Positions 1 to 56,556 of a stretch of DNA of 60,427 nt are shown in pieces. Position numbers and translations under genes: made by a program. Source of the stretch: Candidatus Saganbacteria bacterium (GTDB lineage: Bacteria > Margulisbacteria > WOR-1 > XYC2-FULL-46-14); assembly GCA_013202975.1 (NCBI GenBank), contig JABMQY010000085.1, positions 1 through 60,427 on the forward strand, read 5' to 3'. The notes below the pieces were generated by a model that worked only from the letters and a program-made list of their open reading frames with translations, did no database searches and was not told the origin of the DNA. Position 1 is the stretch's first letter; every line of letters begins with the position of its first letter.

Positions 1-726
1 ATGGGAAATGGGATTGAAGGATTAAAGTTTCAGGCTTCAACAAGAAAAGCAAAGGTTGTAGTAAATAAAAGACAAGGGGCATCTGGTATTGTTTTTGGAT
101 GTTCGCCGTCAAGAGTTCGCGGAGGAAAAAAGAAGGTTTCAGCCCCTGCTCCAGTAATAAAACATGAAGTTCCAAAGTGCATAATAAGAAAAGGTTCAAG
201 TACAGAAATTGTGGCTGATGAATCTGCAAGAAACCAAATAATTGTAGACCCTCAATTAAATTATCATGGTTGGGCAATAAAGTCTGAAGTTGTGACTAGT
301 TATGGACATACTAATCACTTGTCGGCCCGTACTAGTGTGGATAAAAAGGGTATGATTACTCTTTCTACCTACCACGCCGCTAAACCATTTTGTCCTAAGG
401 GAAGCGACCGATTGAGTGGTTATTCATCAACATCCTATCCCGTATATATCTGGGCAGCAAAGGATAAGAGTAAGGAAGTAGTCTGCAGGACAGAGATTAC
501 AGTTAAACAACCTAGCGAAGAAACTTTAAAGGGTATTAAAGGGTGTGTGAAGAAAGTGAAACCGAAATGCAAGTGGGGAAAACGACGAGGAAGATGCAAA
601 CCAAGGCCTCCAAGATCAACAGGAAGCAATGCCATAGGTTCAGAGCGAGATACACTAAGAGTTTCGCCGGTTAAGACAAAAGCGCCAGTTAAAACAAAAG
701 GCGATGACGATATGTTCGAATTATAG
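1..726 (+). CDS. Hypothetical Lys/Cys-rich protein; member 1 of a 3-member family sharing an N-terminal ~40-aa motif (MG..x..L.FQ.S..T.AKVxVN....G..G.VFGC)
   Basis: Begins with ATG at window position 1. N-terminus aligns with the proteins at 3758 and 8086 (..KAKVVVNKRQGASGIVFGCSPS vs ..AKVHVNRGKKSGGLVLGCSDG vs ..KAKVVANRSRGALGLMFGCDSRS). C-terminus is Lys/Arg/Cys-rich. Confidence 0.55.
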   Translation: MGNGIEGLKFQASTRKAKVVVNKRQGASGIVFGCSPSRVRGGKKKVSAPAPVIKHEVPKCIIRKGSSTEIVADESARNQIIVDPQLNYHGWAIKSEVVTSYGHTNHLSARTSVDKKGMITLSTYHAAKPFCPKGSDRLSGYSSTSYPVYIWAAKDKSKEVVCRTEITVKQPSEETLKGIKGCVKKVKPKCKWGKRRGRCKPRPPRSTGSNAIGSERDTLRVSPVKTKAPVKTKGDDDMFEL

Positions 727-737
727 GAGGAGAGTAA

Positions 738-3700
738 ATGAGTAATCCAATACAAATATGTGTAAGAGCGGATGTAAAAAAGCCAAATCCGGAAGCCAGC
801 GTCCATGCGGAAATATTAAAGCTAGGTGATTTATGGACCCTTTTGCAAATGCTTGATAAGGCGGTCGTCGCGACCGGGTCAGATAAGGTGGACGAAACGC
901 TGACTAAATTAGGAAAAACGCTTACCAGTTCACTGGGTGTTTATGGGAAGTTAAGCAAGGCGGTTCCGGATTGGACTGCGACCAGAAAGGTTGAGGGAAC
1001 TATTATTGCAATGGCGCAACGACTAAAAGGTTGGACCAGTGGAGTAATTAAATTTCCGGGCTATCTCTCTTTTGCAAAAGTCTCAAAAGATCCTGTTAAG
1101 ATAAAAAAGTGGCTTTCTCGGATTAGATATAAAACAAAAGCAAAAGAAGATTCTAAAATAGCCCTATGGATTAAAAATGTTAAGATTGCAAAGTTAGTAG
1201 ATATTTATAACAGGCTGTCTAAAAACAGTGATGACAGGCCTATTTTGGCCGACTTAATCACTTTAGTTAAAATGCGCAATGTTGCAGTGGCTGCTTCAAA
1301 AGTTATTGGGGGGATAGCCAGGAAAAATCTGACCGGGGTTTCTGATGCAAAGAAAGGGGCGTATGACAGTTTTTCATCTGTCCATAAAACTTTGCCGCAA
1401 AGAAAATTTTCTAATAAGAACAAAAGAACGATTTTTACTCTCCTTAGGAAATATCCCAAGATTGCAAAAAATATCGGGTTTAAAGATATTAAGGCAGGAT
1501 TTAATCCTGATAATTGGCTAAAAAACCTTACCGGAGACAGTGATACAAAATATCGTGCTACCCGAAAAAAAATTGCAGATACAATCCAGGCTATTAAAGC
1601 CAAGCTCTCAAAGCTTTGTCTCTCACCAAAACTAAAGAAAGCTGTCGACGCTGCCATAAATGCGGCTAAGATTGAACTGGTAAGAGACAAAGGAAGGGAG
1701 CTGCACTATGCAGAAGAGTCAGATAAATGGTATGACAAGGCTGATCAGTGGATGAGACGCAACCATATTATGGCCGATGCTACATTATATACAGGCGCTG
1801 CCTTTGAAACCGAGGATCTTTCATCTTTAGGAAAAGGTTTGGACGGAAACTCTGCTTTTTATCTTAAAACTCCGGTTACTTTAACCTGGAACCCAACAAC
1901 TCCACAGCATGCCTGGAAGGTGGGAGTAAAGGCAGAATATGAAGGGTTACACAGTGGTAAAGACTATAAAAAAGGTGAGGTTGCTCTCTTCTCTCATTTT
2001 AGACGAACTACTCAAAAAGGTCTTCCATTAGAAGCAAGATTAGAGGTCGGCGGGATCTTTGCCGACAGCGCAAAATCAAGTCCGATCTATCCATCAGGAA
2101 GCGCATTCTATGTTGATGGTAATATAAACTTTAACTTTAGCAGGGAACAGTATAAAAACTGGGCTTTGGGCGCCGGAGCAAGGGTAGAAGCCGGGGAATG
2201 GGATCAAACCCCATATCTATCTGTCTCTCCAAGGCTGGGAGTTGACTTTAGAGTAAAAAATTCCTGGACCTTTGGAATTGCTGCAAGGTACAACTTATTG
2301 AACCGGGATTATTTTACTTCATGGGACGATTCTCCCGATGCAGGTTCCCGCTATCTTGGCAGCGAGAGCTACCATAGAGCAGGGGTCGAGGTTGTTGCCG
2401 CATTTAACCGTCCGCGCTACAGCATTGCAGCGCGTGCCTTTGTTGACGCCAGCTTGTCCGGACAAGAGGTTACCGGTGGATTTGATGTTAGTGCCCAAAT
2501 TCAACTTAAGAAGAACGGGAAACACCTGCTTGATTTGAGCACCGGCTATCAAAAAGATGATTATCTGGGACCAATTAGACATAACGTTAAAGTATTAAGG
2601 GCAGAATATTTGTATCAGGGACATGCGCCGCTAAAATATGGAGTCTTTGCTCAGGTCAACGTTCATAAACATGAGGGGCTGCTAAATCATCCTGATGCCG
2701 TTGCTACTGCTGTAGTTGGGCCGTTAGTAAGGTTTGGACTTGCCAAACAATTTCGACGACCGTTAAGAGAATTAACCAGTGTCAATGACCAGCGCAGAGA
2801 GGCCTTTGTAGCCGATTTCTCTCGAACAAGGAGAATATTAAACACACTGGTTGGAGCTGAGAGGGTTGATGAAAAATATACCAACCTCTATGCCTTTGCT
2901 TTTGCCAACGGTCTTATACAAAGTGATTATAAACTTGATCTTAAAGCCGCGGAGGCACAATACGCGAAATTGCATCCAAAAGCAAAAGATCTTCCATTTA
3001 TCGAAAAGATAGAAAAATCGGATATTCCCATAAGGACATATAAGAAGGCTAATTCGCCGGTACTGCAGGGGGATGTGGTTCCAATTGCCTTGAATATCGG
3101 AATCGGAAAACCGGTAACCGGAACAACTGATGATGCATTGGCTGCAAACAAGGAATATCGAAGAAGTACCCGCATGATGACAGCAGGCAAAAAGAAATTG
3201 CTAAAAATTGCTTATCTGCGTAATAAAGTTGCCAATGACTTCAAATCTCAGGGGCTTAATGAAGCGGACTGGAAAAAACTGATAAAGCTTCCGAGCCAGG
3301 CCAGCCATTCTGCCGCGGATTTGGTCTATGCAATATCGCAGTTGAGCGGCTTAAATGATAATAAATTTGTGCTTGAGGCAAAACTTAAAGAGCTTGATCC
3401 AAAACTTGCCGCAAAGAGATCTATTCTTGAACGCGATCTTAGGGCAGGGGTTGTAACCCAGCCTGTATTGGATTTTGCTGTTGCCGCAATTAAGAAAAAC
3501 GGGGGTTCTGTTCTAAGTTTAACCTCTGGTCTACATAGAAAGCATGTTGATACACTGCTTGCTTTGGCCGGAAAAGAAATAAAAGCGGCTCCTAAAAAGA
3601 AAGATGAAACAAAAGGTGCAGAAAAAGCAAAAGGAAAAGGGGCAGAAGAAGTAAAAGATCCGACCAAGCCGCTTGATAAGACAGCTGCAACTGTTGAAGG

Positions 3701-3755
3701 GGAAATGGCAGGTGAAGAAGCTGCAGCGAAGAAAAAGAAAAAGGGAGGTAAATAA
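738..3755 (+). CDS. Giant (1005 aa) Lys-rich hypothetical protein, no obvious signal peptide; central segment with alternating beta-barrel-like pattern; K/E/A-rich C-terminal tail
   Basis: Long ORF with GGAGG RBS 8 nt upstream. Central region (..FYVDGNINFNFSREQYKNWALGAGARVEAG..FRVKNSWTFGIAARYNLL..) resembles amphipathic beta strands. No family recognised. Confidence 0.7.
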   Translation: MSNPIQICVRADVKKPNPEASVHAEILKLGDLWTLLQMLDKAVVATGSDKVDETLTKLGKTLTSSLGVYGKLSKAVPDWTATRKVEGTIIAMAQRLKGWTSGVIKFPGYLSFAKVSKDPVKIKKWLSRIRYKTKAKEDSKIALWIKNVKIAKLVDIYNRLSKNSDDRPILADLITLVKMRNVAVAASKVIGGIARKNLTGVSDAKKGAYDSFSSVHKTLPQRKFSNKNKRTIFTLLRKYPKIAKNIGFKDIKAGFNPDNWLKNLTGDSDTKYRATRKKIADTIQAIKAKLSKLCLSPKLKKAVDAAINAAKIELVRDKGRELHYAEESDKWYDKADQWMRRNHIMADATLYTGAAFETEDLSSLGKGLDGNSAFYLKTPVTLTWNPTTPQHAWKVGVKAEYEGLHSGKDYKKGEVALFSHFRRTTQKGLPLEARLEVGGIFADSAKSSPIYPSGSAFYVDGNINFNFSREQYKNWALGAGARVEAGEWDQTPYLSVSPRLGVDFRVKNSWTFGIAARYNLLNRDYFTSWDDSPDAGSRYLGSESYHRAGVEVVAAFNRPRYSIAARAFVDASLSGQEVTGGFDVSAQIQLKKNGKHLLDLSTGYQKDDYLGPIRHNVKVLRAEYLYQGHAPLKYGVFAQVNVHKHEGLLNHPDAVATAVVGPLVRFGLAKQFRRPLRELTSVNDQRREAFVADFSRTRRILNTLVGAERVDEKYTNLYAFAFANGLIQSDYKLDLKAAEAQYAKLHPKAKDLPFIEKIEKSDIPIRTYKKANSPVLQGDVVPIALNIGIGKPVTGTTDDALAANKEYRRSTRMMTAGKKKLLKIAYLRNKVANDFKSQGLNEADWKKLIKLPSQASHSAADLVYAISQLSGLNDNKFVLEAKLKELDPKLAAKRSILERDLRAGVVTQPVLDFAVAAIKKNGGSVLSLTSGLHRKHVDTLLALAGKEIKAAPKKKDETKGAEKAKGKGAEEVKDPTKPLDKTAATVEGEMAGEEAAAKKKKKGGK

Positions 3756-3757
3756 TC

Positions 3758-5014
3758 ATGGGAGATGTAACAAAGTTAAGTTTTCAATCAGCAAAAACGA
3801 CAGCAAAGGTGCATGTCAACAGAGGCAAAAAGTCGGGAGGTCTTGTGCTTGGCTGCTCAGATGGAGTTGGGACTCAAATATTAGACGGTGCAGTACCGGG
3901 AGTAAAAAGAGCTAGCAATTTTATCTCCGTTGCATTAGCCGACATCTCAAAGGGCGGAAGAGAGGTAACTGTAAGGACCACGCTAAAGCCGGGTTCAAAA
4001 GCACTTCCTCCTAACGTAAAAAGTATTTCAATTGTTCTCGGAACTAAAAATTCAGCAATCTGTTCAAAAGCTCCAGAGGGAGCGGTAATAGATATTGGGA
4101 CTCCGGCCAAAATGGGCAAGGATCCGGTTGTTCAGACCAAAGATGGCAAGTATGCCGGGATGGGGTTAAAACCTCAGAGTCGAATAGCCAGTAAGGATGG
4201 CTACACTACCATTACCCGCGATTATTATGCCGACAAAAATGGTGTCAAAGTAATAAGATATAGTGAACAGCAGGGATTTTCCACAACCAAGAGCGGAACT
4301 TATAAGGCAAATGATAAAGGACAGATTTTGTGCGAGAGCAATTCGGGATCTGTTCCTTGTAAACTTGCAGATGAAAAATTAGGTCAGCTTGATTCCACTG
4401 TTACCCCGGTTAAATGCGAAACAAAAAACAGCTGTGATCCGACCAGTTTAGTTACCGCAAAAACCTGGTATCAGGTAGAGGTAAATGGTACTTCAAATTC
4501 TACACCAAAATTTGGCCTGTCGCATGTTTTTGGCGATGATCCCAAAAAGTGCCTGAGTGATCCATTCAGATATGTTAAAAATGCGGATGATACCTTAAAA
4601 GAAGTTTCTGATCCGGGACAAGCTGGAAAACCGGTTGCCTGCGGAGTGTTTCCATCTTGTGATCCGGTGAAAAAGACAGATGGCGGTATCGATTCAGGAG
4701 TAAAAAAAGACGCAACAGTAAAACCGGATTCTACTCCGGTTTCGGACGGAGGACCGTATAATCCTCCAACTTATCCGATTTATGTGTCGGCAAAAATTGT
4801 AGACAAGGACGGCCGAGTTCTTTCGGAGATAAAGAAACAGCTTGCTCCGGCGCTTACCGCCACATCAGGAATAAAGATTCCTATTTCTTTGGATAGTTTT
4901 AATAAACCGACTGGGGACATTAAATTAGAATTAACGATTAATACTACTAACATTACCCGCGGAAGATTATTTGGTCTTAATCTGCAGGGTGACTTGGTAT
5001 ACGAAACAAAATAG
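3758..5014 (+). CDS. Hypothetical Cys-containing protein; member 2 of the MG..AKVxVN..G..G..GC N-terminal motif family
   Basis: RBS AAAGGGAGG upstream. N-terminal 40 aa align with ORF 1..726. Many Cys, Pro, Thr; likely extracellular. Confidence 0.6.
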   Translation: MGDVTKLSFQSAKTTAKVHVNRGKKSGGLVLGCSDGVGTQILDGAVPGVKRASNFISVALADISKGGREVTVRTTLKPGSKALPPNVKSISIVLGTKNSAICSKAPEGAVIDIGTPAKMGKDPVVQTKDGKYAGMGLKPQSRIASKDGYTTITRDYYADKNGVKVIRYSEQQGFSTTKSGTYKANDKGQILCESNSGSVPCKLADEKLGQLDSTVTPVKCETKNSCDPTSLVTAKTWYQVEVNGTSNSTPKFGLSHVFGDDPKKCLSDPFRYVKNADDTLKEVSDPGQAGKPVACGVFPSCDPVKKTDGGIDSGVKKDATVKPDSTPVSDGGPYNPPTYPIYVSAKIVDKDGRVLSEIKKQLAPALTATSGIKIPISLDSFNKPTGDIKLELTINTTNITRGRLFGLNLQGDLVYETK

Positions 5015-5025
5015 GAGGAATTGAA

Positions 5026-8000
5026 ATGATAAAGAAAATACTATCGATAGTCTTGCTTCTGGGAGTATTGGCTACGGGTGCTTTGGCTGCGGCGCATCCG
5101 GCACCGGCAGTTACATCTCCGATTATAAGCGGGAGCGGGGCAGAGGGTAATTACTATTACCTGTTTGTTCCTGATCATGCAGCAAATCAGATAAGAGTTA
5201 TTTGGGCCTGGAACAATGAGATTGGCGCAGTTAAGCAGACTTCAAAAGATGTTGCCACTATCCCGGTGTCCGGCGGCGCGGTTTACGGCATGGCGGTAAA
5301 TTCTGACGTAAGCAAACTGTATGTTTCAATTGCAGGCAGCTCACCAAATGTTTCAGTTTATTCAATTAGCAAGACCACTCCAGGTGCTCCAACTTTTACA
5401 TTAGAAAAGAGCATTACCGGAGTCTCGTTCCCTATGGGAATGGCTTTGAGTCCTGATAATAAGTATTTATACGTTGCAGACAGTACAATTGGAAAGGTTC
5501 ATGTTATTGAGACCCAAAATAATAGTATAAAGGGAGCAATTAGCGTTGGCGGGGTCAATCTTACCGATGTTGCGGTAAAGCCCGACAATACACGTTTGGC
5601 AGTAAGCCGAACTTTTGCTTCTGGTGCGGTTTATATTTATGATATAACCAGCGTTCCAACTACTATTCCATCAACCCCGATTTATACTGTAACCTCCGGA
5701 ATGGAGAATCCGACCTATCTTTCATATATGAATGACGGAAGGGTGTTATTTGTAAAGGTTAATCAAACTACCTCTCCATACTACGATGTAATCGGATTAA
5801 ATACAGATGAAGGTATTTATGGAGGTTTTGGGGCCGGTTCGTCTAATGCTTATACCGAAGGAGCTTCGCTCTCTATGGTTTCTGCAGATGAATATCATCC
5901 AAACAACAAGTGGGACGGAATGGCTTTGTCTTTGGATGACAGTTATATATATTTAACCCATTACAGGACCTCAATTGATCCACTTGTAACTACCGATGAT
6001 GGTATTTATGGCTATGCGATTAAGGTAAAGGGAAAACTGGGTATCGGCATGAAATATACCGACTCCGATAAAGATGGAAAAGATGACAGCGGTTTAGGCT
6101 GGCAGATAGTCGGACCGATTGTATATAATGAAGGATTTGATTCGACTGTCGGCTCTCCAAACGGAGGCTATGTCTGGTTCGCCTCTTCTGTAAAAGGGCA
6201 TGTCGAAGGAGATACTCTCGGAACCGGATATGACTGGAAATTAAATACTCCTCCGGGAGCAGTTTCAAACTTGCAGGTTGTGCCTCCGACAGCCGGGACA
6301 AAACTTAAATGGAGTGCTGCTTTAGATGATGGCAACTATACTACAAATTCCGGGAAGAAAATGGCTTATGTTATTGAATATAAAACTGCTGCAAACCTTA
6401 GTTGGCAGACTGATTTAGGTAATGTAGAATCAAATGCTAGTGCGATAGAAAAAGATATTACCACACTTTCCTATGGAACTACTTATTACTTTAGAGTTAA
6501 AGCTTATGATGGTGGTGATGCTAATGATTCTGATCCTACTAAGCGTTGGGATGATGGTAAATTTGGTCCTTATGCGGTAATAGGTCCGGTTACAGCAGGA
6601 AAAGATACACCGGTTATACCTCCGACGACTTCAAACATTATTGATGATATTGAGGGAAAATTGGTTCTTCACACTAAATACTATAAAATTATAGCAAGCG
6701 GAGAGAAGGATCCTACTTTTAAACCCGATACTTCAACCAAGCATGAGGGGTCATATTCAATGGCAACAAACTATGATGCTTCAACTGCCGGTTACAGGGG
6801 GTGGGGTGGTGAGCTGCAGACCAATTTTGACTTTACAAAGTACGATACTATCAACTTCTATATGCAGGGTGATGGTTCTACTACCGGAAATGTCAAGTTG
6901 CAGTTAAAGGATGACGATAACAGTGTTTATGGAACCAGCAGTACGGCTTATGAATTTGCGATAAGTGATTCTTCCGGATTCAAGAAATATTCAATTCCTG
7001 TCAGCGCGTTTAATAAGTCATTTGCTGCAGGTACAAATAGTAAATTAGACACAGATAAGATCGCTGAATATCAGTTTATATTTACTGATAAGAATGCTTC
7101 GAAAGGGAAGATTTATATAGATTATGTTACAGCGTCAAAGGAGTTAGGACCGATTGTAACTTCAATTAAGCGTGATGGAGACACTAAAGGATCTTCTGTA
7201 ACTGTTAGCTGGACCGTTACTCCAAGCGGGAATGTTGATATTTATACAGTAGAAGCTTACTCAACTGATGCTAGCAAATGGAAAGCTGAGAAGACAAACT
7301 ATACCAGCTCTTCCACCGGATCTTATACCGACAAATCAAGCGCGGCGTTAGTCGGCTCTGGTTATCAAAAATACTATAAAGTTGTGGCTACCGGAACCAC
7401 TTTGACTTCTACTTTGTTAAAGAAAGACGTTGTTGGTAAGTTTGATGTCTCTCTAAAGAAGGGGTATAACCTGATTTCTCTTCCTTTTGAGGTAGCCGAT
7501 ACAAGTATTGCAAAGGTGATTGGAGCCCAGCTTACTGCCGGGACTGTTCCACCGCTGGCAGATAAGATTTACAAGTTTAAAGACAGCACCTCTGGCTATG
7601 AGCAGGTCTGGTTAAATTCTACAGATAAAAAGTGGTATGACGCGACCACCATGAAAGCATCGACCATAACAGTTGCTCCGGATGCAGGTTATTGGGTTGA
7701 GTTGGCCTCTGGCACTGCTGTTACAACCCTGGTTGGTAACATATCAGAGAAAGACAGGAGTATTAAAGTTCAAAGCGGATTTAATTTTGTCGGGACTACC
7801 TTTCCGATTGCTGTCACACTTGGTTCTGAGAACTTAAGTGCAGGGGCAAGTATGGGATCTGTTCCGCCTCTGTCAGCTAAGATTTATAATTTTAAAGATT
7901 CGACCTCCGGATTTGAGCAGGTCTGGTTAAAATCAACTGATAAGAAGTGGTATGACGCGACTAGCATGAAGCTTTCTACCATGAAACTTAGTCCGGGAAA

Positions 8001-8067
8001 AGGGTATATTGTTGAAGAGATAAAAGGAAAGAGCTCCTATACATGGCTGTATAAAAAGCCGTATTAA
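5026..8067 (+). CDS. Large secreted multidomain protein (1013 aa): signal peptide, YVTN/NHL-like beta-propeller repeats, fibronectin-III-like domain, CBM-like beta-sandwich (YRGWGG motif), two tandem ~110-aa C-terminal repeats
   Basis: N-term MIKKILSIVLLLGVLATGALAAAHP is a Sec signal. Repeated ..LYVADSTIGKVHVIE.. propeller-like units. FN3-like segment ..TYYFRVKAYDGG... YRGWGGELQ..YIDYVTA segment shared with ORF 9561. Near-identical C-terminal repeats (VPPLADKIYKFKDSTSGYEQVWL.. / VPPLSAKIYNFKDSTSGFEQVWL..). Confidence 0.75.
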   Translation: MIKKILSIVLLLGVLATGALAAAHPAPAVTSPIISGSGAEGNYYYLFVPDHAANQIRVIWAWNNEIGAVKQTSKDVATIPVSGGAVYGMAVNSDVSKLYVSIAGSSPNVSVYSISKTTPGAPTFTLEKSITGVSFPMGMALSPDNKYLYVADSTIGKVHVIETQNNSIKGAISVGGVNLTDVAVKPDNTRLAVSRTFASGAVYIYDITSVPTTIPSTPIYTVTSGMENPTYLSYMNDGRVLFVKVNQTTSPYYDVIGLNTDEGIYGGFGAGSSNAYTEGASLSMVSADEYHPNNKWDGMALSLDDSYIYLTHYRTSIDPLVTTDDGIYGYAIKVKGKLGIGMKYTDSDKDGKDDSGLGWQIVGPIVYNEGFDSTVGSPNGGYVWFASSVKGHVEGDTLGTGYDWKLNTPPGAVSNLQVVPPTAGTKLKWSAALDDGNYTTNSGKKMAYVIEYKTAANLSWQTDLGNVESNASAIEKDITTLSYGTTYYFRVKAYDGGDANDSDPTKRWDDGKFGPYAVIGPVTAGKDTPVIPPTTSNIIDDIEGKLVLHTKYYKIIASGEKDPTFKPDTSTKHEGSYSMATNYDASTAGYRGWGGELQTNFDFTKYDTINFYMQGDGSTTGNVKLQLKDDDNSVYGTSSTAYEFAISDSSGFKKYSIPVSAFNKSFAAGTNSKLDTDKIAEYQFIFTDKNASKGKIYIDYVTASKELGPIVTSIKRDGDTKGSSVTVSWTVTPSGNVDIYTVEAYSTDASKWKAEKTNYTSSSTGSYTDKSSAALVGSGYQKYYKVVATGTTLTSTLLKKDVVGKFDVSLKKGYNLISLPFEVADTSIAKVIGAQLTAGTVPPLADKIYKFKDSTSGYEQVWLNSTDKKWYDATTMKASTITVAPDAGYWVELASGTAVTTLVGNISEKDRSIKVQSGFNFVGTTFPIAVTLGSENLSAGASMGSVPPLSAKIYNFKDSTSGFEQVWLKSTDKKWYDATSMKLSTMKLSPGKGYIVEEIKGKSSYTWLYKKPY

Positions 8068-8085
8068 ATATAGGAGGGGGAAACA

Positions 8086-9492
8086 ATGGGAACTGTAACT
8101 GCTGGTAATAATTTGGATCTGTCTAAATGGCTTGAAACATATAAGCCAAAGGGGCAGAGTGTATACAAGGGCGCAGCTAAAAAGTATTCTTATAGCAAAT
8201 CAGCGTCAAAAGCCAAGGTGGTTGCTAATCGATCAAGAGGGGCTTTGGGGTTGATGTTTGGGTGTGATAGTCGATCAGTTGTTGGCGCTTCTGATGCGCA
8301 GCCTAAGGGGGATGTTGACAGAAAGGACCAGTCTGGTTTTAAAAATTCTTGTCCTATTACTGTTAAGTGGACGAGAACACATGCTGGTGGGCAGGGAAAG
8401 GCTATAGCAGTTGACAGTAGTGGTAATTCTTATGTTACGGGTAAGATGAGAGATGTTGCTTGGAGATGGAACATATGGACAACAAAGTATGATCCAAATG
8501 GAAAGACGCTTTGGACTAAAACTAAGAATAGTGGCAGTACTACTGCAAATCTTGGTGGGAATGGAATAGATATTGATGGGGGTGGTAATGTCTATGTGAG
8601 TGGAACCTTAAATTTAGGTAAGGATGGCGTCTGGGCCGGAAAATATGATACCAATGGAAAGTTGCTTTGGAGCCAAGCTACCCAAATTAATGTGCATGGG
8701 TTTTCGTATACTGATAATGAAACGGATCTGGCGGTAGATAAGGCAGGGAATTTCTCTGTGACTACTAATAAATCGTTTGACATCTGGACAAGTAAGTATG
8801 ATACCAAGGCAAATCTGCTTTGGACACAAACCTATAGTGGTCCCTCTTGGTCCGCTAGTTATAATTCGGGGAAAGCAGTAGCAGTTGATAAAGCTGGGAA
8901 TTCCTATGTTACGGGATATGCATCTGTCTATGGATCCGGTGCTTGGAAAGATTGGAATATTTGGACAAGAAAATATGACCCGAATGGGAAAACACTTTGG
9001 ACAAGTACTCACAACGGTAATTCTCCTAAACCTGATAAACCGGATGATATTGGGTATGGAATAGCAGTAGATAATAGTAATGGGAATGTCTATGTGGTTG
9101 GTACGCACAATGGTGCTATGCACCCTTCTGGTTACGGAGGAGACATTTGGCTTGGAAAATATGATCCCAACGGAAAAACTCTCTGGACTCGGTCTTATGC
9201 TGGTTCTGTCAATAGAAGTGATGAGGGGAGAGGAGTAGCGGTGGATAAGAAGCGCAATGTTTATGTGATTGGTTCTACAACTGTTCCTGACTCTCTCACG
9301 CCACTTAAAAGTAATATTTGGATTAGAAAATACGATTCTAACGGAAAGACTCTCTGCACCCAAACTTATGATAGTGGTAGTGATGACTATGGAACCGGCA
9401 TTGCAGTTGATAAGGCCGGGGATGTTTATGTGACCGGTACTAGTGATCGAAGCATTTTTGTTAGAAAATATAAACAGATTGAGATCAAGTAG
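8086..9492 (+). CDS. SBBP-type beta-propeller repeat protein (468 aa); member 3 of the MG..AKVxVN..G..G..FGC N-terminal motif family
   Basis: At least 6 repeats of (AVD..GN.YVTG...NIWT.KYDPNGKTLWT..Y), typical of the SBBP beta-propeller repeat. N-terminus carries the shared motif ..SKAKVVANRSRGALGLMFGCDSRS. RBS AGGAGGGGG upstream. Confidence 0.7.
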   Translation: MGTVTAGNNLDLSKWLETYKPKGQSVYKGAAKKYSYSKSASKAKVVANRSRGALGLMFGCDSRSVVGASDAQPKGDVDRKDQSGFKNSCPITVKWTRTHAGGQGKAIAVDSSGNSYVTGKMRDVAWRWNIWTTKYDPNGKTLWTKTKNSGSTTANLGGNGIDIDGGGNVYVSGTLNLGKDGVWAGKYDTNGKLLWSQATQINVHGFSYTDNETDLAVDKAGNFSVTTNKSFDIWTSKYDTKANLLWTQTYSGPSWSASYNSGKAVAVDKAGNSYVTGYASVYGSGAWKDWNIWTRKYDPNGKTLWTSTHNGNSPKPDKPDDIGYGIAVDNSNGNVYVVGTHNGAMHPSGYGGDIWLGKYDPNGKTLWTRSYAGSVNRSDEGRGVAVDKKRNVYVIGSTTVPDSLTPLKSNIWIRKYDSNGKTLCTQTYDSGSDDYGTGIAVDKAGDVYVTGTSDRSIFVRKYKQIEIK

Positions 9493-9529
9493 GATTATAA
9501 TTATGAAAAATAGAGTGAAATTTTTAGTA

Positions 9530-9547
9530 AAAATTGACGATATATAT
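9530..9547 (+). promoter_or_regulatory. Recurring motif AAAATTGACGATATATAT (instance 1), upstream of the T9SS-CTD protein gene
   Basis: Near-identical copies at 53857-53874 (+), 35777-35792 (-), 46229-46251 (-, AAAATTAACGATACATATATAT) and a degenerate copy at ~19381-19396. Confidence 0.45.
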
Positions 9548-9560
9548 AAGGAGGGAAGAT

Positions 9561-11480
9561 ATGTTTAAGAAACTGTTGAATAAATTAATTTCGGTTGGGA
9601 TAGTTGCTTCAATTATTTTGTCAGGATTGGTCGTTTTTGCACTGCCGGTTTTGGCCGACAGCTATAACGCCTATCCGGATACCGGCCAGTATGTTTATGA
9701 AAAGTCGGTCGGTGGGACTAAGCTGGCTGCCGGTAATCTTTTACAGATAATTTATGCTAAGGGTTTAAAACCCCTCCCTCCTAAATCAGACGGATCTCCT
9801 GGAGGCGCAGACGCCTTAATTGATTCAACCGCCAGAACAGTCGGAAATATCGGCGGTGCCGGATATTTCTACTACGCTCTAAATGGATTAACTAATGGAA
9901 ACACCGTCTATATCCGTGTCTGGAATGCTTCTACTCTAAAAGCAGCAACCCATTACGGTGATTCTGCTCCTTTAAAAATAGGTAACCCATTACCTAATCC
10001 TCCCTCTGCCTGGGCAATAAAATCTTTTGCTACATCAAAACCAAAGCCTGTTACAGGACCATCTATAAAGAGTGTTTCTCCTTCGTCCGGAAAACAGGGC
10101 GAAACAATTGCTAAAGTTACAATAGAGGGGTCAGGTACAACTTTTACTTCTAATTCAAAGGTAACATTTGGAAGTGGAATAACTTCGGGTACAGTTAAAT
10201 TATTAAACGCATTAAAGCTTGAAGTTTCTAATGTAAAAATTGCTTCGGATGCTGCTCCTGGCAAGAGAGATGTTACTGTCGACTCTGTTATAGGGAAAAA
10301 CATGTTTGAAGTTAAGGCTCCAACAGCTGCAACCTCAATCGTCATCGACGATTATGAGGGAGCTACAAAATCAGTCTCTGGTAGCGTTACCTTCCCTTCA
10401 GGCAAGGTTAGTTCTTATTATGCTATCGGACCGACAAAGTCTAATGAACCAACGGTTTTAAGACAGACTTCAGTTGCCAAAAAAGATACTTATGCAATGA
10501 AGACCAGCTATTCTGCAAACTCAGATCCTAAAACTTCATATAGAGGATGGGGTGGTATTTTGGTTGCAACCCAGGATGCATCTTCTGTTGATACTCTAAC
10601 CTTTTGGTTAAAAGGTGACGGATCAACTAACAAGGTTAAGTTTCAGGTTAAAGATGCCGATGGTACAAACTTTGGTTTGACCGATGCAAATGCTGTCTCT
10701 CTTTCGTCAACAGATTGGAAAGAGGTTAAGATCAGCTCTTTTAAAACTAAAATGTCTCGTGTAGTGGGGACAACTTCGGGTGATGCAACATTAAATTGGA
10801 ACAAAATTGATCAGTATCAGTTTGTTTTTGCCGGAACCGCAGCATCAACAGGGGTTTATATTGACCATGTTGTTGTATCAAAAGGATCAACTATACCACC
10901 AGTAACCGGCAACCCAAAGATCGATAAGATCAGCAAGTCAAAGGGAAAAGCTGGAATTGAAGTTACTATAACCGGTACAGGATTTGGCTCTGCCGGAAAG
11001 ATTGAGTTTGCCGGAACAGACGCAAAAGCCTATATCGAAAGCCTGTCAACCAAACAAATATCAGCCTGGAGCGCGACCGGCATTACCTTTAAAGTTCCTG
11101 ATATCAAAAAAGGTAAAAAACAATTATCGGTAATTCGCACCAGCGACAGCCTGCAGTCAAACGCAGTAAGCTTTGAAGTATCAGCTTCGGCTGCCGCAGC
11201 ATCATATAACTATCCAAACCCGTTTAACCCAAGCGGAGCAGAGACAACTAAGATTGTATTTGATTCCGGAACAAACACAACTGCTACCATCTATATCTTT
11301 GATACCACAGCCCAGATGGTAGAAAAATTAAACTGGAGCGGAACTGCCGGAGCAAACGAGGTTTCATGGAACGGCAAAAACGCCTTTGGCGAAGTACTTG
11401 GAGACGGAGTTTATCTCTATCGTGTAGCAGCAGGATCAAGCATATTAGGTCGAGGAAAAATCCTCATAATTAATAAATAA
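9561..11480 (+). CDS. Secreted protein with CBM-like domain (YRGWGG) and a C-terminal T9SS-type sorting/FlgD-Ig-like domain (TIGR04183/PF13860-like)
   Basis: Preferred start ATG 9561 (RBS AAGGAGGG, then MFKKLLNKLISVGIVASIILSGLVVFALPVLADS signal). The track ORF starts at 9534. The last ~85 aa (..SYNYPNPFNPSG..TTKIVFD..ATIYIFDTTAQMVEKLNW..GANEVSWNGKNAFGEVLGDGVYLYRV..GKILIINK) match the Por-secretion-tail pattern. Mid-region shares the YRGWGG..YIDHVVVSK module with ORF 5026. Confidence 0.75.
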   Translation: MFKKLLNKLISVGIVASIILSGLVVFALPVLADSYNAYPDTGQYVYEKSVGGTKLAAGNLLQIIYAKGLKPLPPKSDGSPGGADALIDSTARTVGNIGGAGYFYYALNGLTNGNTVYIRVWNASTLKAATHYGDSAPLKIGNPLPNPPSAWAIKSFATSKPKPVTGPSIKSVSPSSGKQGETIAKVTIEGSGTTFTSNSKVTFGSGITSGTVKLLNALKLEVSNVKIASDAAPGKRDVTVDSVIGKNMFEVKAPTAATSIVIDDYEGATKSVSGSVTFPSGKVSSYYAIGPTKSNEPTVLRQTSVAKKDTYAMKTSYSANSDPKTSYRGWGGILVATQDASSVDTLTFWLKGDGSTNKVKFQVKDADGTNFGLTDANAVSLSSTDWKEVKISSFKTKMSRVVGTTSGDATLNWNKIDQYQFVFAGTAASTGVYIDHVVVSKGSTIPPVTGNPKIDKISKSKGKAGIEVTITGTGFGSAGKIEFAGTDAKAYIESLSTKQISAWSATGITFKVPDIKKGKKQLSVIRTSDSLQSNAVSFEVSASAAAASYNYPNPFNPSGAETTKIVFDSGTNTTATIYIFDTTAQMVEKLNWSGTAGANEVSWNGKNAFGEVLGDGVYLYRVAAGSSILGRGKILIINK

Positions 11481-11494
11481 GGGAGGAGAAAGTA

Positions 11495-13324
11495 ATGAAG
11501 AAATTTTTAATCTTTAGTTTTATAGTCGTTAGTTGTTTGTTGTTGGTTGTTGGTTTTGCGCAAGCTGACGTTACCGCAACAGATCCGCTGCGGATTGGTG
11601 TGGGCGCAAGGTCGCTTGGTATGGGCCGCGCATTTGTCGCGGTTGCAGAAGATGCTGATACGATTTTTAGCAACCCGGCCGGATTAGGAGAACTCTATTC
11701 TCCCAAAATTACCAGCATGTATACCACCTTAATGAGCGATGTAAATTACATTGTTTTGGGTGGCGCTTATCCTTTTGGAAAAAACAGCGGTATCGGCGCA
11801 GGGATCATTACCTCAAACGTCGGCGGAATATCACTTTATGACGGGACAGGTACCTCTCTTGGAAGTGCCAGCTGGAACAACAGCTTAATCTTTGCCTCTT
11901 ACGGATTAAAACTGCAGGACGAAAGATTAAAAGTCGGTGGAACATTAAAATATTATACTCAGGGCGGTTCTGGAAACGCGACCGTTGAAGCTGCTGCTGG
12001 ATCAGCCATCGGCCTTGATGCGGGTGTCCTTTATTCTGTATCAGATGCGCTGTCATTAGGTGTTGTTGCACAGAATCCATTAGGCACTAAACTTGAATCA
12101 GGAAACAGTGTTTCAAACGCACTGCCTACAGTTATCAAAACCGGTGTTGCTTACCGTCTTCCGATTGGAGCAGAGGGAAAGCTGACCCTGGCAGCCGATT
12201 ACGACCTGATCAGCAAGCGCTCAAATGCTTTCCATGCCGGAGCAGAATATTTTATAACTCCTATGTTTGCATTAAGGGCCGGACTGGACCAGGATCCTGC
12301 GCCGGAAGGTACAGTTACCAATCTTACTGCCGGTTTAGGGCTTAGGGTTAATGGTATTGCCTTTGATTTTGCCTACCATCCATACGGAAATCTGGCCGAA
12401 GATACTACCTATTATTTTTCACTGGGATTTGTCGGAGCCCCGGAACCAAAGAAACTTGATTTAGAAATGGTGCTTAATTCTCCGGTTGATAAATCAAAAG
12501 TTTATACCGACAGTGTAAAGGTAGCCGGAACACTTAAGGGAAAGTTGGACGGCATCAACGTAAAAGTTAACGGGGTTAATGCGACTTTGTCTTCTAAGGG
12601 AGCTTTTGTTGCTTCTGTTCCTATTGATAAGCTGGGTAAAAAACTGATCCATGTTGAAGCAGTTGATAATAAAGGAAGAAAGATCACAGCAGACCGGCGT
12701 GTATTGCGCCTGGTCAGCTTTAAAGATGTTACCGGCGGCTACTGGGCCAAGAACCCGATCGAAAATACCGGAACTGTCGGTTTGATTCAGGGGTATCCTG
12801 ATGGAAGCTTTAGGCCGGACCGAAGCTTGAGCAGGTCAGAGCTGGCAGCAATTTTGGTTAGAGCAAAAGAATATAAACTTCCCGGACGTCCGGTAAAGGT
12901 TTTCAAAGACGTACCGGCAAACCACTGGGCTGCAGGATACGTTGAGATTGCAAAACGTACCGGTTTGATTAAGGGATATCCTGACGGAAGATTTAGACCC
13001 AACAACCGTATCTCTAATTCAGAGGCAGTAACGGTTATGGCCCGATTTGACGGAATGTCAAAGAAATTTGGAAAGACCGCCTTCTCTGATGTATCTAAAA
13101 AACACTGGTCAGCAGGGTATGTAAATGCCGCACAGGAAGCAGGAATGCTCTCATATGTCAGTGGTACGGAGTTTAATCCAGATAAGTCAGTAACCCGGGC
13201 ACAGTCTGTACAGATGCTGGCAAAGACATCAATGGCAACCAAACTGGTTGATCAGCTCTTATCATGGGACAAGGGTTTCCAATTTGAAATAACCAGGCCG
13301 ACTATTAAAGCAAGTCTTTATTAA
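11495..13324 (+). CDS. FadL/PorV-like outer-membrane beta-barrel (N-terminal hatch with NPA motif) fused to three C-terminal SLH domains
   Basis: Signal peptide MKKFLIFSFIVVSCLLLVVGFAQA. ..GARSLGMGRAFVAVAEDADTIFSNPAGL.. matches the FadL/TodX/PorV N-terminal hatch signature (E. coli FadL [25 protein letters not shown]). Three SLH repeats near the C-terminus (FKDV..W...V.....GLI.GYPDG.FRP...). Confidence 0.75.
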   Translation: MKKFLIFSFIVVSCLLLVVGFAQADVTATDPLRIGVGARSLGMGRAFVAVAEDADTIFSNPAGLGELYSPKITSMYTTLMSDVNYIVLGGAYPFGKNSGIGAGIITSNVGGISLYDGTGTSLGSASWNNSLIFASYGLKLQDERLKVGGTLKYYTQGGSGNATVEAAAGSAIGLDAGVLYSVSDALSLGVVAQNPLGTKLESGNSVSNALPTVIKTGVAYRLPIGAEGKLTLAADYDLISKRSNAFHAGAEYFITPMFALRAGLDQDPAPEGTVTNLTAGLGLRVNGIAFDFAYHPYGNLAEDTTYYFSLGFVGAPEPKKLDLEMVLNSPVDKSKVYTDSVKVAGTLKGKLDGINVKVNGVNATLSSKGAFVASVPIDKLGKKLIHVEAVDNKGRKITADRRVLRLVSFKDVTGGYWAKNPIENTGTVGLIQGYPDGSFRPDRSLSRSELAAILVRAKEYKLPGRPVKVFKDVPANHWAAGYVEIAKRTGLIKGYPDGRFRPNNRISNSEAVTVMARFDGMSKKFGKTAFSDVSKKHWSAGYVNAAQEAGMLSYVSGTEFNPDKSVTRAQSVQMLAKTSMATKLVDQLLSWDKGFQFEITRPTIKASLY

Positions 13325-13338
13325 TTAGCTTTTAATAG

Positions 13339-13376
13339 GGGCGAGGTTGCATTGCTGCAATCTCGCCTTTTTTTTT
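13339..13376 (+). terminator. Rho-independent terminator after the surface-protein operon
   Basis: GGCGAGGTTGCA-ttgc-TGCAATCTCGCC stem followed by a run of 9 T. Confidence 0.8.
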
Positions 13377-13389
13377 GTTATAATTAGAT

Positions 13390-14647: not shown

Positions 14648-15052
14648 GGGGCAGTAAGGGTATTGACGGGGTGTTTTCGTAGTTCTGGTTGCGAGCCGAG
14701 CATGTCATCTAATCTCGTTAAAATTGGTGGCAAAACATAAATGCAAGAAACATATTTGCACAACTAGTTGACGCTGTAAAGACTGTTTTCAGTCCAGCAG
14801 TTCCTCAGCTAGTGGCTTGCTAATTAAAGCATAGCCAGACTCACCATCTTTTCCGATAGGGGTGGATTCGAGTTTAATTATATCGGATATCCGATCGTTC
14901 GCTTATAGGCTGGTTGGAGAAAATTTATGTAAGCTAGCCTCAAGAAGACTCTGTTTCGGGTCAACCTTGAGGCGAAATAAAGAATAGAAACTACGCTCGT
15001 AGATACTGGGGCTCGTTCATCTCGGACACGGGTTCGACTCCCGTCTGCTCCA
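14648..15052 (+). ncRNA. ssrA: tmRNA (ssrA), one-piece
   Basis: 5' GGGGCAGUAAGGGUAUUGACGGGG resembles the E. coli tmRNA 5' end GGGGCUGAUUCUGGAUUCGACGGG. 3' tRNA-like end GGACACGGGTTCGACTCCCGTCTGCTCCA: T-arm ACGGG/TTCGACT/CCCGT, acceptor 3' strand CTGCTCC pairing with 5' GGGGCAG. Adjacent to smpB. Tag-ORF frame uncertain; candidate resume GCA near 14743 and stop TAA 14821-14823. Confidence 0.8.
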
Positions 15053-15055
15053 CTA

Positions 15056-22875: not shown

Positions 22876-24108
22876 CTAGATTTTCCAGGTCGCGCCCAGG
22901 ATTTGGGTGCGATTGAATGATCCGGCAAGATAGGCGTAATCGATAACGAGCGGTCCGACCGCGATACCAATACCGGCGGTTTTACTGTTGTCGTGCAGTC
23001 CGGCGCGCAAAGCTACTCCCCCCATCGGTCTTGCTTCTACTCCATAGTGCATGGCTGATGAGCGGTTATTTTGTTCAAAAATATTTTTTAGGTCTGCCGC
23101 AATTGTTACCTGGGGCAGGGGAGTTATTGCAATACCGGCGTTTACGTTCATTCCATAGGTAGCAACTGCACCGTTGTCAAAATGAATATCGGTGGTAAGT
23201 AAATCCTTTGCGGTAATTCCAAAAGCAACTTCATCAACCGGGCGGGCAATCATCCCCAGATCAAGTGATCCTCCAAATCCTTTGGTTTTTACGCTTGGTA
23301 TTTCAAGATCATAAATGTTTAAGTTTGCGCCAATGGCAACCCTCTCTTCATATCCGGAGGCAAGGCTTAAGCTGTACCAGCTGGTATTTTGGTCAAGGGT
23401 GGAGTTTTTATCAAAAACCCAGGTTAATCCAATGGCAAACTGGGCTTTACCTTCAGGACTGTATTTTTTGTGGTGGTGTCTTCTCTCCCAGTAAGAGGGC
23501 CTATAATAGTTATGGCTATACCAGGGGTTTCTTAGTCCCCACAAAAATCCTTCCTTTGCTGCTCCGGCCGCTTCTTTTCCAAAAGAAACTGCAGATTTAG
23601 CTGTTTCCTTGGCTGCCTTTTTTGCCGCCTGCTTTGCTTTTTGTTTGGCCTCTTTTTTTACATCCCTGACCTTTTCAGAACCTTTTGCTTTTACTTTTTC
23701 AGACAAACTTTCTTCTTTTTCTGATTTATCAACATCCCTGCCCCAGCCTTTTTTTACAACACCCTGGTCAGATAAGAACTGCGCTCCCTGAAAAGCCAGC
23801 ATCGAGGCTGCTCCAATCCCAAGGATCCAGGCAAAGGGATTCATTTCTACTTCAAGGCACATTTTCATTGCGGCCAGATTTTCACCGATGGTTTGATTGC
23901 GGTTTGTAATTGCAGTTGAGCCGGTAATGTCTACTCCTGGATTAAGGGCCATTCCGGCCGGGTTATAGTAGGCAGCGTTAGCATCATCGGATATTGCGGT
24001 AAATGCACCGCCCATCCCCATCGGCCTGGTTCCGTAAAAAGCATAGGCGCTTTGGAGGCTTACTACAACTATTATAACAATTGATTTAACCAGGAGTTTA
24101 TTTTTCAC
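22876..24108 (-). CDS. Second FadL/PorV-like outer-membrane protein with a Lys/Glu/Ala-rich low-complexity insert
   Basis: ..YGTRPMGMGGAFTAISDDANAAYYNPAGMAL.. has the same hatch signature as ORF 11495. Track ORF begins at a TTG (24147). GTG at 24108 gives a classical signal peptide MKNKLLVKSIVIIVVVSLQSAYA. Insert ..KSEKEESLSEKVKAKGSEKVRDVKKEAKQKAKQAAKKAAKETAKS... Confidence 0.65.
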   Translation of the reverse strand: MKNKLLVKSIVIIVVVSLQSAYAFYGTRPMGMGGAFTAISDDANAAYYNPAGMALNPGVDITGSTAITNRNQTIGENLAAMKMCLEVEMNPFAWILGIGAASMLAFQGAQFLSDQGVVKKGWGRDVDKSEKEESLSEKVKAKGSEKVRDVKKEAKQKAKQAAKKAAKETAKSAVSFGKEAAGAAKEGFLWGLRNPWYSHNYYRPSYWERRHHHKKYSPEGKAQFAIGLTWVFDKNSTLDQNTSWYSLSLASGYEERVAIGANLNIYDLEIPSVKTKGFGGSLDLGMIARPVDEVAFGITAKDLLTTDIHFDNGAVATYGMNVNAGIAITPLPQVTIAADLKNIFEQNNRSSAMHYGVEARPMGGVALRAGLHDNSKTAGIGIAVGPLVIDYAYLAGSFNRTQILGATWKI

Positions 24109-24192
24109 ACTTGCTATGATAATAGCAAATGCCTCTTGCAGAGTCAATAAATCAAATGTTAGAATGGCTAGAACTTAACCCTGGAGGTAATT

Positions 24193-38084: not shown

Positions 38085-38555
38085 TCAGGGTAAAGAGCTA
38101 AATAAGCGCAGAAATTTAACTATACAATAAAGAATATATTTCCTCAAAAGCATAAGTTTGTGAATTATAAGTCCGGCCAGGCCATTCTTTGGATATAATT
38201 TTCTGTTTTTTCTGATTATTTTGTAAACTTTTCCTATGATATTCTCAAAGGGGATAATATAGGGGTCTATTTTGTTGTTGTTGTCTCCTCTGGTAATAAA
38301 ACCTTCTGGTGTAATCCTTATTACACGATGTATAGTTGTGCAGATTTTTTTTGTTTGAATGTATTGGATTATGTCTCCTCTTTCTACTGAGGTTTTGTCA
38401 GGATATGGTTTAATAATTACCCTGTCTTTGTCTTTTATTACGGGAGACATGCTGGGACCATGACAGGTTGCAGTTTGTTCTTGACTAACTAATGAGTTCA
38501 TGTTTAAATTATACAGCAATATGCAAATTATGAGGGACATATAATGCCTAAACAA
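38085..38555 (-). CDS. ER/archaeal-type (SipW/Sec11-like) signal peptidase I, short form
   Basis: Box B ..HGPSMSP.. (Ser nucleophile), box C ..RGDIIQY.., box D ..IHRVIRI.. with His in place of the bacterial Lys general base, box E ..TRGDNNNKIDPY... Confidence 0.65.
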   Translation of the reverse strand: MFRHYMSLIICILLYNLNMNSLVSQEQTATCHGPSMSPVIKDKDRVIIKPYPDKTSVERGDIIQYIQTKKICTTIHRVIRITPEGFITRGDNNNKIDPYIIPFENIIGKVYKIIRKNRKLYPKNGLAGLIIHKLMLLRKYILYCIVKFLRLFSSLP

Positions 38556-53874: not shown

Positions 53875-53954
53875 GTAGATAGGGTAGATCAGCTTGCACT
53901 GAGCGAAGTCGAAGTGTGATCTGCCCGTACAAAGAGAAAAACAAGGAGAGAAAA

Positions 53955-55740: not shown

Positions 55741-56556
55741 TTAATCTGTCCTCCTTTCTCTCTTTCGAATAACAATTTTTACAACTTCTCCGCCATTGAT
55801 AGCGCTTTTTTGATCTTTGAAATAGAAGAATACATTTTTCATGTCAGGTCTTCTGGCTGCAAAGTTTTCTTCTACTAATTTTGATTCTAGGGCAAATGGT
55901 TTGATTTTCCTGTTGTAATTTAGAGCAAGTAAGCGATGTTTATTGTATCCTTTACCACCTAATTTTGCGGGGCTTGCGATAAAACGGTCTTTCTTTGAAG
56001 TGGGACGGATATCGTATAGCCCTATTCCTTCTTGATTTCTGAAATCATCATGTAAACCAAAAAGGTTGCAGTTTCCGACCCCAAAACCTCCTTTAGTTTT
56101 AGCTGCATGTGAATAAATGACAATATACTTAACTTTAAAATCATCCGGGTTTGTTTTTTCTAATTCTTTTCCAAGGGTTTCCAAGGGTATAGATGCTACT
56201 TTATTATTGTCTTTGCACCATTTCTCGAATGGGCCGTTTGTTATTCCGACTATAATTTGCGGATCGTTGAATTGAAACCCTTCGAAGATTTTCTTGTCAG
56301 GCGTTATTCCATGAATGTATTGTATATTCCTTATCTCTTTATCTTTTAAGGTTTTTAGGAGGTTTTTGGGGATTGGTTTGCCGAGCATAACGTTTCCAAT
56401 GCCGTCATTATGAATTAAATAAGCGTCAATACTTGAAGAATCTTCTTTTCTGATCATTTCTGGTATTTTTATGGCGGCAAAGATTGCCAAAGCCGTAAAA
56501 ATGACCAAAACGTAAATTGAAATTCGAATTATTAAAAAGAGTGTTTTATTGTTCAT
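55741..56556 (-). CDS. Membrane-anchored hypothetical protein (271 aa), translationally coupled to the upstream serpin gene
   Basis: N-terminal TM ..LFLIIRISIYVLVIFTALAIFAAI..; ATGA start/stop overlap with the serpin; RBS AGGAGGAAAA inside the serpin 3' end. Confidence 0.55.
   Translation of the reverse strand: MNNKTLFLIIRISIYVLVIFTALAIFAAIKIPEMIRKEDSSSIDAYLIHNDGIGNVMLGKPIPKNLLKTLKDKEIRNIQYIHGITPDKKIFEGFQFNDPQIIVGITNGPFEKWCKDNNKVASIPLETLGKELEKTNPDDFKVKYIVIYSHAAKTKGGFGVGNCNLFGLHDDFRNQEGIGLYDIRPTSKKDRFIASPAKLGGKGYNKHRLLALNYNRKIKPFALESKLVEENFAARRPDMKNVFFYFKDQKSAINGGEVVKIVIRKRERRTD

Follow-up and report, generated by a model that had tools for sequence, protein, structure and literature searches.

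The shared N-terminal segment and its conservation

The window, i.e., the whole stretch of DNA analyzed here, is a complete 60,427-bp contig of a Candidatus Saganbacteria metagenome-assembled genome (MAG; locus tags HQ564_), and sequence from the same organism is also present in two JGI samples (3300032731 and 3300032738) and one Logan assembly. Positions 1-13324 carry seven open reading frames (ORFs) on the same strand, in the order s1-b1-s2-b2-s3-b3-PorV and separated by gaps of 2-68 nt. The three small genes (s1, s2 and s3; ORF1, ORF2 and ORF3 below) encode proteins that begin with a common N-terminal segment, here termed the leader. This likeness had been proposed in a first-pass annotation of the DNA and is borne out by regular-expression, BLASTP and hidden Markov model (HMM) searches. 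The three genes and the motif cores within them are the following.

1..726, + strand: ORF1 (s1), 241 aa, HQ564_06790; leader = residues 1-34 (nt 1-102)
22..105, + strand: ORF1 motif core, LKFQASTRKAKVVVNKRQGASGIVFGCS
3758..5014, + strand: ORF2 (s2), 418 aa, HQ564_06800; leader = residues 1-33 (nt 3758-3856)
3776..3859, + strand: ORF2 motif core, LSFQSAKTTAKVHVNRGKKSGGLVLGCS
8086..9492, + strand: ORF3 (s3), 468 aa, NQU17763.1; leader = residues 1-60 (nt 8086-8265)
8185..8268, + strand: ORF3 motif core, YSYSKSASKAKVVANRSRGALGLMFGCD

The ungapped core common to the three window ORFs reads L/Y-x-F/Y-x(5-6)-A-K-V-x-[VA]-N-x6-G-x3-G-C. A six-frame scan of the contig with the expression [AS]KV.[VAIL]N...[FLMIV]GC gives exactly three matches, namely the N-termini of ORF1, ORF2 and ORF3, and a 40-bit degenerate DNA pattern has three sites in the contig versus none in 100 shuffles. 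BLASTP comparison of the three small proteins confines their similarity to residues ~7-41 (37-47% identity over 28-32 aa), in agreement with the earlier description of their remainders as unrelated. In leave-one-out tests, two-sequence HMMs score the omitted member at 22.7-32.2 bits, corresponding to E-values of 0.01-7.7 at a database size of 1.84e9 and of ~1e-9 to 1e-6 under our own rescaling to the contig's 721 six-frame ORFs.

As the first-pass annotation had suggested, a profile of the three N-termini was taken to other proteins, namely 1.84 billion representative sequences, with a listing threshold of E<=0.001 that more divergent members could escape. Besides the three queries, it returned two true new members and two repeat artefacts, the latter (P0006 and P0007) being rejected as internal-repeat matches that sum 6 and 8 weak stretches. 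P0004 (219 aa, E 1.6e-11) is the ORF1 orthologue and lies on a 30-kb Logan metagenome contig, where the surrounding genes share 49-92% identity and partial synteny with those of the window, indicating that this contig comes from a related organism. P0005 (HQ564_05065; 332 aa, E 1e-7) is a paralogue encoded on a different, 10.4-kb contig of the same MAG. Both are ORF1 homologues, with identities of 55% and 41-45%. A five-member HMM then gives 68-81 bits to the four copies scored and 4 bits to the next best ORF, and the core that all members share is A-[KR]-V-x-x-N-x6-G-x3-G-C.

Other searches added no members. The strict 40-bit DNA pattern gave a single match among GTDB species representatives, a chance occurrence on an Acidobacteriota contig away from any ORF start, and none among JGI metagenome contigs; since this pattern would miss P0004 and P0005 (ARV / VVSN variants), these negatives are weak. 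A relaxed 38-bit pattern that fits all five members yielded two matches, both by chance, in a collection of metagenome contigs that evidently lacks those of the source sample. A word-indexed profile search with the three N-termini found nothing and, as it did not recover its own query proteins either, is uninformative on absence. A full-length search of 5.8e9 proteins with ORF2 returned only the query itself, marking it as an orphan, and a literature search on the motif returned nothing relevant. Thus, the motif is conserved beyond the three neighbours yet confined to five proteins of one narrow uncultivated lineage.

Several details of the first description have to be given up. The 15-25-residue extension said to precede the motif does not apply to ORF3, whose leader has a 27-aa insertion after MGTVTAG and 43 residues before AKV. 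Neither the basic patch nor the Ser/Asp following the Cys is conserved in the two extra members, both of which have Lys after the Cys, and P0005 has NAGSGASG at the basic patch. The net charge of the front part (n-region) is +3 to +9 across members. The proposed resemblance of the Gly-Cys to a lipobox stands: the segment ends in a lipobox-like [VIM][FL]GC, in which, across the five members, residue -3 is V, I or M, -2 is F or L, -1 is an invariant Gly and +1 is an invariant Cys. In all five, the motif lies at the extreme N-terminus.

At the DNA level, the copies differ at most third codon positions, and the synonymous sites of the motif are near saturation among the three window copies (proportion of synonymous differences, pS, 0.61-0.70, versus a nonsynonymous proportion, pN, of 0.31-0.48), which rules out recent duplication or gene conversion. 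Because the protein motif persists despite this saturation, the similarity is old and maintained at the protein level. Within the ORF1 family, conservation is highest over the first 35 residues (71% identity versus 52% for the rest; nonsynonymous divergence, dN, 0.21 versus 0.43), and MGNGIEGLKF is invariant in this N-terminus. The first-pass annotation had set its proposal against mere recent local duplication, and this simpler account fails on two grounds, namely the near-saturated pS and the presence of the motif on a second contig of the MAG as well as in a related organism. The shared segment is therefore a real, statistically solid N-terminal feature with a lipobox-like end, under purifying selection.

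The start codons are well marked. A GGAGG or GGGAGG Shine-Dalgarno (SD) sequence lies 6-9 nt before each of the ORF1, ORF2 and ORF3 starts, that of ORF1 being visible in an independent JGI contig with 24 nt of additional 5' sequence, and the P0004 start is also preceded by an SD. ORF2 additionally has a stop three codons upstream of its ATG. A mis-called start hiding a normal signal peptide was considered and rejected, given the SD at all starts and the absence of ATG, GTG or TTG among the ORF1 codons read between its ATG and the Cys. Together, the SD sequences, the lack of an alternative start and the upstream stop indicate that the odd N-terminus is really translated. Just 5' of the ORF1-family gene, the assembly ends at a distance of 0-80 nt in three independent assemblies (the NCBI MAG contig, the JGI contig and the relative's Logan contig), which suggests that a repeat or hypervariable region may break assembly there.

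Domains behind the leader and operon partners

In ORF1, the leader is followed by a Lys/Pro-rich linker, an immunoglobulin-like (Ig-like) beta-sandwich core that resembles S-layer and cadherin domains, and the acidic tail DDDMFEL. An AF2 model built on an alignment of only three sequences shows no secondary structure for residues 1-55 (pLDDT 33-40) and an Ig-like core at pLDDT 70-85. The remainder of ORF2 is Cys-rich (nine Cys), whereas ORF3 continues with a linker and an SBBP beta-propeller that matches NF047494, the Leptospira LipL53 lipoprotein family, at 122 bits. Low-complexity sequence follows the motif Cys, conserved Cys are many in the mature parts, and in four of the five members the number of Cys is even once the motif Cys is set aside. 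No other signal peptide is present in any leader protein. The tail DDDMFEL of ORF1 (706-726) also ends P0004, and its counterpart in P0005 is DDNCFQL, after which an additional domain follows; this tail could be a second, C-terminal recognition motif.

The genes that accompany ORF1, ORF2 and ORF3 in the seven-gene series, and the hairpin that follows it, are:

738..3755, + strand: b1, 1005 aa, Lys-rich, without a signal peptide
5026..8067, + strand: b2, 1013 aa, canonical Sec signal peptide, no Cys
9561..11480, + strand: b3, 639 aa from an ATG with SD (ORF list: TTG 9534), Sec signal peptide, no Cys
11495..13324, + strand: PorV/PorQ-family outer-membrane barrel with an Ig-like domain and three SLH domains (PorV-SLH), last gene of the series
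13337..13380, + strand: intrinsic-terminator-like hairpin (15-bp stem and T run) closing the series

From this layout, we read the seven ORFs from s1 to PorV-SLH as a putative single, tightly packed operon closed by a strong terminator. The first-pass annotation had gone further and treated each small gene with the giant gene behind it as a two-gene functional module. The alternation of small and large genes is real in this operon, but it is not a conserved pairing: the gene after P0004, at 754-2412 of the relative's Logan contig, encodes a 552-aa protein without a Sec signal, hydrophobic in its N-terminal half and bearing a Ser/Thr kinase (Pkinase) domain at its C-terminus, and b1 is unrelated to b2 and b3 and lacks a signal peptide. 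Likewise, the description of the giant proteins as secreted or repeat-rich fits b2 and b3, which have Sec signals, but not b1. The third large gene, earlier given as 648 aa with spacers in the series of 11-42 nt, most likely starts at the SD-preceded ATG at 9561, making its product 639 aa long and its spacer 68 nt. A weakly kinase-like ORF also occurs within the window itself, at 53916-55238.

The large proteins b2 and b3 share a 319-aa region with 30% identity by BLASTP. The former shows weak beta-propeller-repeat matches, fn3 and a CBM11-like domain, and two of its C-terminal segments look repeated by eye, while the latter combines a CBM11-like domain and TIG with a type A C-terminal sorting domain of the type IX secretion system (T9SS). 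For b1, no family match was found in Pfam, NCBIfam or PHROG and no sequence match in PDB, and a single-sequence AF2 model of its core was unusable (pLDDT 33); its central region (~residues 340-650) is beta-rich by eye, resembling a beta-barrel outer-membrane protein. A phage origin found no backing among PHROG families (0 matches). The barrel at 11495-13324 matches NF033709 (152 bits), and in the same polypeptide it is joined by a Glucodextran_B-like Ig domain and, at the C-terminus, three SLH domains, an order of barrel then SLH that is the reverse of that in the OmpM tethers of diderm Terrabacteria (SLH then barrel). It is possible that this protein both works as a T9SS-type shuttle and is anchored to the cell wall. 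The contig has a second PorV-like ORF, at 22876-24147 (- strand). A disulfide from the motif Cys to the downstream large protein was considered and is excluded for b2 and b3, which contain no Cys, and the only Cys of PorV-SLH lies in its signal peptide.

Candidate functions of the leader

The reading that we favour, with a probability of about 0.4, is that the shared segment may be a lineage-specific, sequence-specific N-terminal leader for the atypical export and Cys anchoring or cleavage of extracytoplasmic proteins. A leader with a processing or anchoring Cys is suggested by the N-terminal position of the segment, its basic front, the V/I/M-x-G-C end and the extracytoplasmic-looking cargo without any other signal peptide. 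In line with this, positions -3 and -1 agree with the -3/-1 signal-peptidase rule, and the leader genes are co-operonic with secreted surface proteins and PorV-SLH. The residue-specific conservation of the leader further suggests recognition by a particular factor. In such a scheme, a factor for targeting or processing would recognise the conserved basic front part MG...A-[KR]-V-x-x-N, the short Gly-rich G-x2-G-x3-G stretch would enter the membrane or translocon, and a cut or modification would occur at the invariant Gly-Cys, so that the mature protein would start at, or be tethered via, the Cys, most likely by lipidation. A flexible linker would then lead to the SBBP propeller, Cys-rich domain or Ig-like sandwich as the extracytoplasmic part. 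In this way, the leader proteins of the window could be membrane-anchored parts of a cell-surface apparatus encoded by the seven-gene operon, which also holds the gene for the PorV-SLH outer-membrane protein and those for b2 and b3, the two Sec-secreted proteins with CBM11/TIG/fn3 domains, the latter bearing the T9SS C-terminal domain.

Several properties of the leader weigh against this proposal. The first-pass view that the segment lacks the hydrophobicity of a normal Sec signal peptide is upheld and extends to lipoprotein signals: the best 10-residue hydrophobicity within the first 45 residues is at most 1.3 on the Kyte-Doolittle (KD) scale in the members, versus 2.7-3.6 in the contig's likely signal peptides. 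In four of the five members, the uncharged run before the Cys spans only 7-9 residues with a mean KD of 0.9-1.6, whereas the canonical lipoprotein used as a control (47322-48917 of the contig; MRKLVFVFCLLLLTVLVSGC) has an uncharged run of 16 residues with a KD of 2.86. Lys or Arg stands directly beside or inside the would-be h-region. The full PROSITE PS51257 rule for lipoproteins is passed by this control and by none of the five members. It asks for K/R among the first seven residues and for an uncharged stretch of at least six non-DERK residues ahead of the four-residue lipobox, where h-regions typically comprise 7-22 hydrophobic residues. The motif Cys, which the rule needs at position 15-35, is residue 33-34 in four members and residue 60 in ORF3, and K/R occurs within the first seven residues only in ORF2 (K6), the other four members being without. 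The classic lipobox [LVI][ASTVI][GAS]C is failed by 5/5 because -2 is F or L, even though -3, -1 and +1 fit; the control passes it. Moreover, Sec signals do not typically have n-regions whose individual residues are conserved, and neither lgt, lspA nor a dedicated peptidase or exporter was found on the 60-kb contig. The first-pass annotation recognised no described signal family, and the five N-termini (60-84 aa) indeed match 0 Pfam-A/NCBIfam families at E<=10, among them the models for ESPR, YSIRK, SipW-cognate and LPAM signals; the control N-terminus gives weak matches at E 0.07-0.27, below any threshold, of which three of four are lipoprotein or lipoprotein-signal families.

A strongly basic n-region can partly offset a short hydrophobic core in SecA-dependent export. 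In P0005, the internal basic residues are replaced by Gly, Ser and Ala and the whole VVSNAGSGASGFVFG stretch is uncharged, as if its AKVxxN strand were part of a weak hydrophobic core; with an uncharged run of 15 residues (KD 0.95), this member passes the PS51257 core pattern.

The leader can be set beside known systems, each of which it resembles in part. With lipoprotein (type II, Lgt/LspA; PS51257) signals it shares the N-terminal position, positive front, V/I/M at -3, Gly at -1, Cys at +1 and a disordered linker, and the SBBP propeller of ORF3 belongs to a domain family known as lipoproteins in Leptospira. It departs from them in its core of 7-9 weakly hydrophobic residues in 4/5 members, Phe or Leu at -2, the Cys at 60 in ORF3 and an n-region conserved residue by residue; a G+LPP-type pattern is matched by 0/5 members. 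SipW-cognate (TIGR04088), ESPR (PF13018), YSIRK and KxYKxGKxW signals are likewise conserved in sequence across unrelated cargo, and they often have a long n-region extension. To our knowledge, however, all of them have a normal hydrophobic core and none ends in G-C, and the leader differs in being restricted to five proteins of one lineage. The Mycoplasma Vlp/Vsp and Borrelia Mlp/Erp families offer another parallel, as they too place a conserved 5' leader cassette on unrelated or variable mature regions in clustered genes. Their leaders are canonical signal peptidase II substrates, and their conservation reaches the DNA and upstream regions through recent recombination, whereas here the leader DNA has diverged to synonymous saturation. 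Double-glycine leaders, processed by C39-peptidase ATP-binding cassette (ABC) exporters, are also non-hydrophobic, sequence-specific and N-terminal with an invariant Gly at -1, but the leader has F/L rather than G/A/S at -2, large folded cargo and no C39/ABC gene nearby. Finally, Tat signals have a similarly long n-region and a Gly/Ala/Ser-rich, weakly hydrophobic core, from which the leader is set apart by a core far shorter than the Tat h-region and by the lack of a conserved RR; [ST]-R-R-x-F-L-K is matched by 0/5 members. Eukaryote-like N-myristoylation of the MG start was also considered and rejected, as by eye only ORF3 fits the PROSITE myristoylation pattern and bacteria are not known to have the enzyme.

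A possible alternative, which we nevertheless doubt, is that the segment is not an export signal but a non-cleaved N-terminal docking peptide, i.e., a handle for partner recognition. In that case, a common partner, for instance the PorV-SLH barrel or a different protein of the envelope, would be extended at its edge by two or three short amphipathic beta-strands (L-x-F-x-A, A-K-V-x-V-N and G-I-V-F-G). The residue-specific conservation, alternating hydrophobic and polar positions, and invariant Asn and Gly are as expected for a strand-turn-strand element, and the motif is common to proteins of one operon that ends in an outer-membrane barrel. On the other hand, AF2 predicts no structure for the segment (with the three-sequence alignment mentioned above), members occur outside the operon too (P0005 on another contig, P0004 beside a kinase), and b2, b3 and mature PorV have no Cys with which a disulfide could form. 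Nor would docking explain how Cys-rich and SBBP proteins that lack a signal peptide are exported.

Rather unlikely, in our judgement, is a leader for a dedicated non-Sec export or processing system that is cut at G|C by its own peptidase, in the manner of double-glycine leaders with peptidase-containing ABC exporters or of SipW-cognate signal peptides. The sequence-specific leader and the Gly at -1 would suit such a system, as would the narrow phyletic range; cognate leader/peptidase pairs typically show all three. A small S24/S26-type peptidase-like gene is present at 38085-38555, although it lies 30 kb away and is perhaps simply the housekeeping signal peptidase. The double-glycine test argues the other way, as no member has GG, GA or GS at -2/-1, and the cargo consists of folded proteins of 219-468 aa rather than peptides. 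Furthermore, neither a C39 peptidase, an ABC exporter nor another candidate was found beside the members, among the genes of the 60-kb contig or in the P0004 contig stretch.

It is quite unlikely that the proteins are cytoplasmic and the segment an intracellular tag with no part in secretion, be it a degron, a basic anchor at the membrane periphery or a peptide that directs the protein to some compartment or machine. The very basic N-terminus and the lack of a canonical signal peptide could be taken that way, and b1 and the kinase neighbour of P0004 are also without Sec signals, but the cell envelope is the typical place for SBBP domains, Ig-like sandwiches, many conserved Cys and operon partners of this kind, and no compartment or injection-system genes occur nearby. 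That the segment is a functionless 5' cassette left by old duplication or recombination and merely tolerated seems very improbable: the family is tiny and lineage-restricted and three of its copies are neighbours, yet the amino-acid motif persists despite synonymous saturation, exceeds every other part of the ORF1 family in conservation between two organisms and has been kept on three unrelated mature domains.

A bolder form of the export-and-anchoring proposal, in which the motif would represent a hitherto undescribed class of N-terminal signals for sorting or lipidation, recognised by sequence and served by dedicated recognition and processing machinery, that anchors a small set of Saganbacteria proteins to a membrane or the surface without a normal hydrophobic core, appears rather doubtful to us. 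Saganbacteria belong to the diderm Terrabacteria, whose outer membrane is tethered by SLH-porin (OmpM) proteins and which reportedly have practically no Lol pathway for lipoprotein sorting (bioRxiv 10.1101/2021.05.31.446380). The sorting of anchored proteins in such envelopes is a context for the motif and no direct evidence for its role. If export or lipid anchoring with 7-9 weakly hydrophobic residues were true, it would stretch the accepted rules for Sec and lipoprotein signals, imply that signal predictors overlook envelope proteins of uncultivated lineages and provide a handle on how Lol-less diderm Terrabacteria place anchored envelope proteins. As matters stand, the general impact is limited, as the family, although well supported, is very small and lineage-restricted (five proteins).

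Other features of the contig

The small peptidase-like gene at 38085-38555 (- strand) encodes a 156-aa protein, very small for a LepB, that weakly matches Peptidase_S24 and contains GPSMSP, a motif typical of type I signal peptidases; this protein could be the housekeeping signal peptidase or a specialised enzyme.

Downstream of the terminator-like hairpin come smpB and a transfer-messenger RNA (tmRNA) gene, the latter at 14648-15055 directly 3' of smpB and two small ORFs. The predicted tmRNA tag peptide is unusually long (ARNIFAQLVDAVKTVFSPAVPQLVAC), and its C-terminal residue is Cys, the usual ending being Ala-Ala.

Further along, 28960-33339 (- strand) encodes a 1459-aa protein with PPDK_N and PEP-utilizer mobile domains in its middle, and this gene adjoins a second starch-synthase-like GT5 gene. 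The pair has no match within the 10.7 kb of the relative's Logan contig that were compared, a stretch that ends at hisG. Lastly, 56553-58067 (- strand) codes for a bacterial serpin that is full-length (PF00079, 421 bits) and starts with a signal peptide.

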